The notes beneath the pieces are model-generated. The model saw only the letters and a program-made list of their open reading frames with translations, searched no databases and was not told the origin of the DNA. Source: Candidatus Micrarchaeia archaeon (GTDB lineage: Archaea > Micrarchaeota > Micrarchaeia > CAILAH01). From it: a DNA stretch of 35,008 nt. The translations under genes were made by a program, and so were the position numbers. The stretch is from assembly GCA_038740245.1 (NCBI GenBank), contig JAVYLZ010000005.1, positions 1-35,008 on the forward strand, given 5' to 3'. Shown in pieces: positions 10,421 through 12,264 of this stretch. Position 1 is the stretch's first letter; each line of letters begins with the position of its first letter.

Positions 10421-11452
10421 TCAGTACGGATCGTTGTCCAGCATTTTGTTGAAGTTCTTTGGCTTGCGCTTTTTCCAGTTGCCCTGGTGGTATGCATAGC
10501 TTGCTATGAGCGGCACTGCAAGCGTGGCCTCGGCATAAACCATCTGCTCAAAGTCCTGGTCCACCTTGCCCCAAGAGTGCGCCTCCTTAAGCGTGCTGCC
10601 CGACAGCCCGCCATCACGCTCATCAGCCACTGTTATCTGAACGGCATATTTGTGCATCTTAACATTCTTGCCTAACACATCGGCGGCAACCACCACATCC
10701 TGCGCAAAGTTCTTTGGCACACCACCGGAAATCATAAACAGACCTGTTTCGCCGGCAGCAATTTTAACCTTGGTAAGCTCAAGGAAATCCTTGGCCGAAT
10801 CTATTGAGACCTTTGGCTTGCCTTTCCTGTTCCACTGGTGGTACACGAGGCCGAAGCCGGCACTGCAATCGGAGAATGCAGGCACAAATATAGGCACACC
10901 TTTTTCGTACGCTTTGCGCACCACACTGTCCTTGCCTTTATTGCTCTTAACGAGATACTCACCCATCTTGGCGATGAACTCGCGTGATGAATACGGCCTC
11001 GGCTCCAGCGAGTCCGCGATTTTTGCGACGGTAAGGTCGCATTCGCGCAAATCATCCTCATCTATAAACGTGTCATATATCCTGTCAATGTGTTTCTTGT
11101 AAAGGTCATCATCGTCAACTTTCCATGTGCCCTTGTAGTGCTTGAACCCCAGCCCCTCAAAAAAGTCCTGGTCAACGATTATGGCGCCTGTTGACACGAT
11201 TGCATCAACCATATTGTTGTCCACCATATCGTAGACCGCTTTCTTGAGCCCGGCACTGAATATTGAGCCTGCAAGGCAGAGGATTACCGAGCACTTCTCA
11301 TCTGCGAGCATCCTGTCGTAAATCTCCGAGGCCCGCGCGAGTGTCCTCGCTTGGAACGCCATATCCTTATACTGCCTTATAATCGGCGTGGAATCAAACG
11401 ACTTGATGTCCACGTGCTTTATTTCATCCCGTAGGTAGTCAGATTTTTTCAT
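10421..11452 (-). CDS. dys: Deoxyhypusine synthase / DHS-like (homospermidine synthase-like) protein
   Basis: IVSTGA, IDRIYD, GGVPKNF and DGGLSGSTLKEAHSWGK (catalytic Lys) motifs. ATG at 11452 with TTAAATA box upstream. Confidence 0.92.
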   Translation of the reverse strand: MKKSDYLRDEIKHVDIKSFDSTPIIRQYKDMAFQARTLARASEIYDRMLADEKCSVILCLAGSIFSAGLKKAVYDMVDNNMVDAIVSTGAIIVDQDFFEGLGFKHYKGTWKVDDDDLYKKHIDRIYDTFIDEDDLRECDLTVAKIADSLEPRPYSSREFIAKMGEYLVKSNKGKDSVVRKAYEKGVPIFVPAFSDCSAGFGLVYHQWNRKGKPKVSIDSAKDFLELTKVKIAAGETGLFMISGGVPKNFAQDVVVAADVLGKNVKMHKYAVQITVADERDGGLSGSTLKEAHSWGKVDQDFEQMVYAEATLAVPLIASYAYHQGNWKKRKPKNFNKMLDNDPY

Positions 11453-11514
11453 ATGTGAAAGTAATATCAGTGTAATATATTTAAGCATATCACCAGTTCC
11501 CGAAGGGAAAACGC

Positions 11515-11525: not shown

Positions 11526-11891
11526 TGCGGCAGCCGGGATTTTCACATGGCAGCCCAAGGGGGCTCCGCCCCCTTAGTCCGCCACTGCCCAAACCCCCAC
11601 GTGTGTGAGGTATTTTCTTTTGGCAGCCCAAGGGGGCTCCGCCCCCACTTGCGTGGTTGCAAGGGGTGCGGGGCCGTGCAAACAGAATGTTTGCAGGCCA
11701 CATGCGCAAAGCGCATTCTGGCCCGCTGGGGCCCTGCTTTGAACCCGGATCCTAGGCTTTCTCCAGAAGGACTCCGTCCTCCTAGGAGGTTTACCCCCTT
11801 CCCAAACACCTTTCTTTGGTGTCGCTTTCTTTTCCGCAGAAAAGAAAGAGACTGGGAAGCCCATGTCCTGACCAGGTTAGACTACAGCCGC
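11526..11891 (-). tRNA. tRNA-Gly(CCC) with a 94-nt intron at 37/38 (11759-11852) and a 198-nt intron at 59/60 (11540-11737)
   Basis: Exons 11891-11853, 11758-11738 and 11539-11526 join to a 74-nt cloverleaf: GCGGCTG/CTGCCGC-A (one U-U), D-stem GTCT/GGAC, anticodon stem TGGGC/GCCTA with loop TT-CCC-AA, 4-nt variable loop, CCGGG-TTCAAAT-CCCGG. Splice motifs TTCC-CA|G...GGAG-AA|A and TTCA-AA|G-CA...TG-TGAA-AA|T. Confidence 0.92.
11548..11646. repeat. 26-bp exact direct repeat (11548-11573 and 11621-11646) containing a GGGGGC-GGA-GCCCCC hairpin, inside the tRNA-Gly T-loop intron
   Basis: tggcagcccaagggggctccgccccc occurs twice. Confidence 0.92.
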
Positions 11892-11958
11892 ATAAGGGCG
11901 CATCCGCCCCTAAGGGGTGTGTTATTAAAAGGAGGGAATAAATATAAAACTGAAAAAA

Positions 11959-12264
11959 TCAGACGAGGTTAATTTCTATGTGCACGGTATCCGGCACGCG
12001 CACACGCATAATCTGCTTGAGGACCCGCTCATCGCCTTCAACGTAAATCATCCTCTTGTATATCCTCATCTCCCACTTCTCGTAGGTATCCGAACCGTCA
12101 CCGCATGGCGTCCTCCTTGTTGGCAGAACCAGCCTCTTGCGCGGCAGCGGTATCGGGCCCCGTACGGGGATGCCGCCCATCTTCGCGATTTCGGTTATCT
12201 GCCTTGCGACACCGTCAACTTCCTCGTATGACTTCCCTACAAGCTTTATGCGTGCCGATACCAT
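11959..12264 (-). CDS. rps10: 30S ribosomal protein uS10
   Basis: ARIKL..GPIPLP..RRTPCGDGS..WEMRIYKR; directly downstream of tuf. Confidence 0.97.
   Translation of the reverse strand: MVSARIKLVGKSYEEVDGVARQITEIAKMGGIPVRGPIPLPRKRLVLPTRRTPCGDGSDTYEKWEMRIYKRMIYVEGDERVLKQIMRVRVPDTVHIEINLV

Follow-up and report, generated by a model that had tools for sequence, protein, structure and literature searches.

A short REP-like hairpin element that very probably seeds and extends BHB introns in tRNA genes of Micrarchaeota

Movement of introns between tRNA genes has been described for the Thermoproteales, where near-identical introns occupy different tRNA genes of one genome (Fujishima et al. 2010; PMC4090602, PMC3239211), and the share of introns in cross-tRNA families has been put at 28.3% for Thermoproteales and 1.5% for Asgard archaea (bioRxiv 10.64898/2026.10.13.758758). 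The mechanism by which introns transpose is called unknown in the accessible part of a 2014 review (PMC4090602), no arrival route for introns is reported in the accessible part of the Asgard preprint (bioRxiv 10.64898/2026.10.13.758758), and a model for Caldiarchaeum invokes a large integrating element (PMC3293823). In ARMAN-2, 59/60 introns are served by an epsilon-2 EndA that cleaves relaxed motifs, and 59/60 introns with relaxed BHB motifs likewise occur together with a ~390-aa, three-unit EndA in the lineage considered here; the accessible text on ARMAN-2 deals with intron positions and the enzyme, and describes neither introns of as many as 287 nt built from repeats nor where such introns come from (PMC3239211; PDB 4fz2). 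A literature search of incomplete coverage returned no description of an element such as the one reported below, termed element A. How the DNA of new archaeal tRNA introns arrives is a question to which element A gives a concrete lead: intron birth and growth become directly testable because a defined 51-nt donor is found outside genes and also opens 29 introns from their first base, and because it has a target motif, characteristic junctions and orthologous sites that are empty. In eukaryotes, introner-type transposons are small mobile elements whose insertion is neutralised by splicing, so that they create introns. Element A resembles them, but the splice signal is here a BHB structure, which EndA cuts, in place of spliceosomal dinucleotides, and half of that signal must come from filler.

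The window examined here, a 35,008-nt stretch of contig C5 of a Candidatus Micrarchaeia archaeon genome (G000; 688 kb, 81% complete), carries on its minus strand a tRNA-Gly(CCC) gene with two introns spanning 11891-11526: exon 1 (tRNA positions 1-37) lies at 11853-11891, a 94-nt 37/38 intron at 11759-11852, exon 2 (positions 38-59) at 11738-11758, a 198-nt 59/60 intron at 11540-11737 and exon 3 (positions 60-73) at 11526-11539. The locus is presumably downstream of EF-1 alpha, flanked by an ORF that we take to encode ribosomal protein S10 (11959-12264) and by what is presumably a deoxyhypusine synthase-like gene (10421-11488). Both ARAGORN and Rfam missed the unspliced gene on the window; on removal of the introns, the three joined exons restore a cloverleaf tRNA-Gly(CCC) accepted by ARAGORN. 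A 4-bp central helix with 3-nt bulges is found at the junctions of both introns, with 4/4 pairs in each, and both are probably spliced; in the precursor's lowest-energy fold the anticodon loop is paired to an internal stretch and the 37/38 BHB does not form, so that folding by itself is no proof of splicing. The ~390-aa EndA, whose best PDB match is the epsilon-2 enzyme 4fz2 (E 4.5e-125), was found in 8/8 other genomes of the family and in 0/1 for the 81%-complete window genome, and RtcB was present in 5/5 genomes tested; at one locus (G002:C49:39632-42307) the RtcB match falls into two pieces inside a single 965-aa frame, possibly an intein. The acceptor stem of tRNA-Gly(CCC) has a T-T mismatch at 6-67 (window 11886 and 11532), a position mismatched too in the Gly(CCC) orthologs of G001, G002 (T-C or C at 67) and G007. 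Intron comparison at orthologous tRNAs, which had been proposed in the earlier note, separates the two introns: a homologous 37/38 intron occurs in the syntenic congeneric ortholog (L002; 77% across that portion of the gene's 5' part which aligns), in the congener G001 the syntenic ortholog has retained intron 1 and has no intron 2 (59/60), and other orthologs in the family have unrelated 59/60 introns or none.

The 59/60 intron is a composite. Its 5' part (11647-11737, minus strand) is a module designated B, a G-run hairpin followed by an AACC tail, which is shared with introns of Arg(GCG), Ile(TAT), Lys(TTT) and Gly(TCC) and here contains an internal double-hairpin insert of about 48 nt (11719-11672). 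The remainder holds the two exact 26-nt copies that had drawn attention to the locus, at 11646-11621 and 11573-11548, which lie far beyond chance, as 5000 first-order resamplings of the intron gave no exact repeat longer than 14 nt. These 26-mers are parts of one whole and one truncated copy of element A, both on the plus strand. The full copy (11548-11598; 78.5 bits with the covariance model; alignment A1) is antisense to the tRNA and comprises a 37-nt imperfect hairpin (11548-11584) and a tail (11585-11598); the truncated copy, which corresponds to the first 26-mer, occupies 11621-11646. Ahead of the full copy lies a 12-nt flank (11536-11547, plus strand), the antisense strand of the T-stem and BHB helix, reading TTCACA, a 5/6 match to the target TTCAAA defined below. 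A decayed second copy of this flank (11609-11620, plus strand; 38-nt direct repeat D1, 89%) looks like a duplication and may be that of the target.

The earlier note had taken both introns of this gene to share building blocks, but sharing of the module between them is not demonstrable here; sharing is with introns of other tRNA genes. The long hairpin that it had placed in intron 1 is real (11821-11852, minus strand; 14-nt arms, 93%), U/A-rich, and assigned to a family of its own, D; it is akin to two copies that stand in tandem within the tRNA-Arg(TCT) intron of contig C40. Near the 3' end of intron 1 there is likewise an 8-bp hairpin with a GGA loop (11763-11783, minus strand), and its existence stands, but its description as a compensatory variant of the module does not: it scores 7.2 bits (E 2.2; model R1) against 78.5 bits for the full copy, and is one among 22 matches in the window up to E 10. 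In the congeneric ortholog the loop is TGT, and that version of the hairpin is not among the G001 matches to the element-A model up to E 1. As a homologue of element A this hairpin was rejected, its score being at chance level, and kinship with A is suggestive only. The module is thus not demonstrably common to both introns, because of this score and because the U/A hairpin comes from another family. The CCAAA(A)GAAA...TTTGG tract said to be common to both introns proved coincidental. In intron 2 it arises where the truncated A copy meets the decayed flank duplication, and its G is missing in both paralogous introns; in intron 1 it is part of a hairpin from a different family.

Beyond this gene the module does recur, as had been anticipated, in other tRNA introns, at intergenic sites of relatives and at 52 genome loci. 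These 52 loci came from a pattern scan of 185,579 genomes and are all archaeal; by title, 46 carry the name Micrarchaeota or a subordinate name, three 'ainarchaeum' and three no such name. These titles, together with the type of EndA in members of the family, point to Micrarchaeota as the lineage of the window. In metagenomes 106 stretches matched the pattern, of which 80 were examined, and two patterns returned 0 viral loci, on which ground a viral source of element A was rejected. Within the class, element A is present in 14/151 genomes from nine families (reversed-pattern control, 0), at 1-6 exact-pattern copies per genome. It is a unit of ~51 nt, a 37-nt imperfect hairpin with conserved mismatches followed by a C-rich, unpaired tail that lies at the end opposite the hairpin and ends in CCCAAACCCC (alignment A1); invariance in the core is partly by construction, because the scan patterns fixed part of that core in advance. 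The hairpin foot covaries (17 cells versus 5.1 shuffled, 0/500), a figure that kinship can inflate. The opposite strand folds better in 109/109 copies, with triloops of the form GNA in 53/74 on that strand and in none on the other; GCGNAGC, a motif described as an unusually stable DNA mini-hairpin (PMC13037366), occurs in 40/109 copies, compared with 0 on the other strand. Element A itself takes double-hairpin inserts of 51-58 nt, or multiples of this length, between hairpin and tail or in the loop (L032, L047, L057, L065, L074, L092, L112 and others).

Among 109 distinct sites, 29 lie in called tRNAs at 59/60, in sense orientation, with element A starting at the intron's first base; two are T-loop-like, three are in other sense introns, three are antisense, four directly follow a tRNA 3' end, 14 directly follow a stop codon and 54 are elsewhere, an overcount in that several of these were seen by eye to lie in tRNA genes missed by the script. 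At the 31 T-loop sites, A begins after the sixth (28) or seventh (3) base of the loop, which is the splice junction, and the central helix is fully paired in 26 of them. Non-tRNA sites resemble the T-loop, because 33/68 match TTCAAA at 4/6 positions or better against a background of 7.9%; YYC stands at -6..-4 in 28/68 (7.2%) and TCnA in 11/68 (1.4%), a preference and not a strict site. The near junction is precise at the hairpin foot and follows a TTCAAA-like target (YYCnA), the far end is variable, with 0-83 or more nt of filler, and both orientations occur. At 22/109 sites the upstream flank is repeated downstream over 13-67 nt (scored at 12 nt or more; one of the 22 is an array of A itself and one is probably chance), while 87/109 have no duplication; in controls on the first 54 copies, 9/2858 cross-pairs and 0/54 offsets scored. 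Fillers that fold back over at least 6 nt are found at 22/31 T-loop sites versus 13.6%, and inverted copies of the junction lie in the filler of 5/70 non-intron sites at 7 nt or more (1.0%) and of 2/70 at 10 nt (0.007%). Orientation is biased to sense, 34 versus 17 relative to upstream ORFs within 150 nt and 31 versus 3 in tRNAs. A count of copies in introns and in intergenic DNA had been suggested: in the window genome each of the six full copies lies in a 59/60 intron, four of them at the 3' end in antisense and two at the start in sense orientation, with no extragenic copy in this 81%-complete assembly, and many of the 109 sites lie outside introns. The idea of an element that hides in introns is thereby upheld at its core and extended: A does accumulate in BHB introns, is found outside them too, and starts 29 of them at their first base.

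Comparison with known repeats places A nearest to the REP/BIME/REPIN group, with which it has in common a short GC-rich imperfect hairpin, an extragenic location and a habit of abutting stop codons (PMC3733652, PMC3116915, PMC6006769), as well as insertion of copies into those already present and tandem units that take in DNA from the flanks (PMC3116915, PMC3733652). It differs in having no unpaired GTAG or CGTC tag (its four terminal bases are paired and variable in alignment A1), in reaching 1-6 exact-pattern copies per genome and not tens to thousands, in the absence of a RAYT gene flanked by repeats, and in a main niche that is the tRNA intron. The MITE-like character also proposed earlier does not apply, in that a classical MITE has terminal inverted repeats and a duplication of fixed length, and A has a hairpin at one end, an unpaired tail at the other, no TIRs and duplications of 13-67 nt at 22/109 sites. 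From these features, all read from sequence, element A is very probably a REP-like, non-coding and non-autonomous mobile element that seeds and extends BHB introns, much as had first been suggested for the accumulation of such repeats inside introns and as its presence in 59/60 introns and outside them bears out.

As to how it moves, the balance tips slightly towards a complete copy-in route at the DNA level, a geometry to which one precise end, a loose target, a variable far end and the use of both orientations all point. Element A would act as a single-stranded DNA hairpin that inserts one-endedly: a free DNA 3' end, at a nick or on a stalled nascent strand, may switch onto the hairpin foot, copy the hairpin and tail, sometimes fold back on the new strand, and return with it to the chromosome at or upstream of its start, so that a resident dedicated transposase would not be needed. 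The T-loop (TTCRAA, ending at position 59) would be the best natural target, and insertion there, in an essential gene, would survive only if the filler supplied the complementary TGAA helix strand and bulge, which fold-back copying could write; the relaxed-specificity epsilon-2 EndA and RtcB would then splice the insert. Fold-back at T-loop sites may, on the other hand, reflect selection for splicing instead of mechanism; at neutral sites it is rare (5/70). An existing BHB intron would offer, through its 3' helix strand, a mirrored TTCA target on the other strand, so that further copies could land inside it neutrally, which would account for the antisense A copies inside the B-type intron of the window. 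There, the B intron would have come first and A twice afterwards, antisense; the finished composite would then have been copied as a whole into two further tRNA genes, with gene conversion from an anchor in the T-arm as the probable route.

A, B and D are built alike, each as a hairpin after which its 3' arm is repeated, and a B-like motif (G-run hairpin plus AACCCCC) was found at 71 viral loci (L245-L315) of giant viruses, phages and small circular viruses, some of them tandem arrays; three records of ~2.9 kb among these are presumably anelloviruses. No transposase was found among the 60 of 123 ORFs scanned beside the viral motif (1 RT, 1 Rep). A common plan, together with a viral motif that has no consistent neighbour, leans towards copying by host polymerases but may be due to convergence. 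Extended to its limit, this would make A a generator of BHB introns that has no transposase of its own, a DNA template of hairpin plus repeated arm copied by host polymerases, with fold-back writing the splice signal in the same event, and A, B and D one self-copying class that builds most of the lineage's introns, extends to 5S rRNA and is resembled by motifs of unrelated viruses; we entertain this broader scheme tentatively, as a speculation with the odds against it.

An RNA route would account equally for the sense bias and for B hairpins that stop exactly at -1, and such a route is kept in play because junctions coincide with processing sites, notably for the B-like hairpins at -1. In its SINE-like form, tRNA-processing enzymes would release small RNAs that end at the hairpin foot, and an RT would copy from that 3' end into a nick, or jump to these RNAs once it had run off the end of a tRNA fragment. 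A single precise end, filler that varies and long duplications of variable length would all be expected of such a retroposon, as would A junctions that fall at the processing sites 59/60, 37/38 and the tRNA 3' end, and the orientation bias. B-like hairpins end at -1 in 9/38 tRNA leaders of the window genome, tRNA-Gly(CCC) included (11892-11913, minus strand), by a regex drawn from the same leaders that gave 10 matches, one without a hairpin, versus 4 over 40 other offsets. The end of the leader hairpin at -1 is the RNase P site, and selection needs no such position. Against retroposition, a partner RT (PF00078) is found in 1/14 A-positive genomes, against 19/151 overall in assemblies that are incomplete, and in none for the 81%-complete window genome, the GNA triloops point to DNA hairpins, and the four sites after tRNA 3' ends fit the YYCnA target too, so that we regard it as unlikely. 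Short RTs, about 215-280 aa in length, are found repeatedly in two families, and in two class genomes an RT gene adjoins a Y1 transposase gene (G081:C18:104844-106532, G092:C26:655-2048).

Mobilisation in trans, with a Y1 (HUH) transposase binding to the imperfect hairpin of single-stranded DNA, as for REP or IS200/IS605 substrates, was judged quite unlikely. It draws on the conserved mismatches and strand asymmetry of A, on the TCnA preference (11/68 versus 1.4%), and on a conserved tetranucleotide which, on the GNA strand, marks the upper stem's 5' foot and is thus placed like the guides of IS200/REP (PMC6006769). Like IS200/IS605 ends, A has a strand-asymmetric hairpin and a short target preference 5' of a precise junction, and one copy abuts an IS200-like element (L055), 151 nt before its Y1 gene; a second locus in that genome has in common with it A, the filler and the opening bases of the IS end. 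Peel-and-paste transposition needs two ends and leaves no duplication, unlike A with its single defined end and long, variable flank duplications. Of 128 ORFs flanking A, 113 were scanned and a single one is a transposase, the IS200-like TnpA of L055, an element that has a left end of its own, its homology with the G177 copy starting after A; as the autonomous parent of A it is unproven, since its end begins after A. The L055 IS protein was matched in 9/401 genomes of the phylum at E 1e-15. Y1 genes occur in 4/14 A-positive genomes versus 41/151 overall, in 0/9 genomes of the family and in 0/1 for the window genome, and none of 22 Y1 and RT loci had A-like sequence nearby. A GIY-YIG nuclease was found in 0/5 genomes, and none of the trans-acting partners suggested in the earlier note (HUH/Y1 transposase, GIY-YIG nuclease or RT) was detected in the 81%-complete window genome. 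A Cas12f-like gene was considered as the enzyme and rejected, being present in the window genome only (1/5 genomes) and not tied to A. The gene in question (G000:C1:60256-61360) is a Cas12f/TnpB-like gene in a 629-aa frame that lies beside a CRISPR array with seven repeats.

Copying of whole introns is evident in the same genome, and the proposal that only whole introns move, by Thermoproteales-type copying, gene conversion and slippage, with the 26-mers as a slippage duplication and the extragenic copies as escaped intron pieces, starts from it. The 198-nt 59/60 intron is 96% identical to that of Gly(TCC) and 95% to that of Lys(TTT), so that three tRNA genes hold near-identical introns (198/195/193 nt, 94-96%); module B, the 5' part of the 198-nt intron, is also present in Arg(GCG) and Ile(TAT), while the 3' part is found again in Ser(GCT), Thr(CGT) and Leu(TAA), and the Ile(TAT) intron of G001 has the same B-plus-inverted-A plan. 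A census of the window genome gave 38 tRNA genes, among which a 37/38 intron is present in 30 and a 59/60 intron in 26, with intron lengths reaching 287 nt (at least three genes are mis-parsed, and two full and two contig-cut genes are left out); three further candidates were dropped as false. By a pairwise count, 9/56 introns (16%) fall into six cross-tRNA pairs of at least 80% identity, a likeness to the Thermoproteales, though the clustering method differs from that behind the 28.3% of the preprint (bioRxiv 10.64898/2026.10.13.758758). That the mobile unit is a whole intron confined to tRNA genes is accordingly true of the 198-nt composite, and not of A, which instead is smaller than an intron, lies also outside tRNA genes and in both orientations, and has a target preference and flank duplications. 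All six copies in the window genome are intronic, but extragenic copies elsewhere keep the same two boundaries and have no intron ends or exon remnants, both orientations occur at 59/60, and non-tRNA sites have the target preference. In G007 one 105-nt variant of A occupies two intergenic sites and also opens the 59/60 intron of Glu(CTC), with a single substitution within the body, a change in the foot that is paired, and flanks that all differ; the Glu(CTC) gene of the window genome has no such A-initiated intron. Three different flank pairs around one variant already largely refute the movement of whole introns alone, which is very unlikely as the full account. The reading of the module as a functional RNA or regulatory structure (guide, terminator or stabiliser) under selection in introns and at gene ends is scarcely credible, for all its covarying stem and the 14/109 sites directly after stop codons, given that it has no Rfam match, is patchy (14/151 genomes), is absent from the congeneric ortholog and has as its better-folding strand the non-transcribed one at most tRNA sites.

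For annotation, the preferred reading of A as a REP-like element that seeds and extends BHB introns would mean that standard tools miss these tRNA genes because of the introns it seeds or extends; ARAGORN reports 13 tRNA genes in the window genome against the 38 of the census. An insert is also seen in the 5S rRNA gene of this genome (L322:856-1023, contig C22), which is 168 nt long compared with 115-116 nt in six relatives of the family: a D-family hairpin of ~52 nt lies in loop C with a relaxed BHB-like junction and is possibly an intron, and the literature search returned no 5S rRNA intron. Both tRNA-Thr genes (G000:C32:816-384 and C15:5048-4693) have 37/38 introns, of 287 and 218 nt, that end in a B-like hairpin, form 1/4 pairs of the expected BHB helix and may need stepwise splicing. 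In several tRNAs of the window genome the 3' end is duplicated, with a hairpin module between the copies. The tRNA-Asn(GTT) gene of the window (2957-2768, minus strand) has an 81-nt 37/38 intron and a short T-loop insert, and its last 14 nt are duplicated downstream at 2708-2695.
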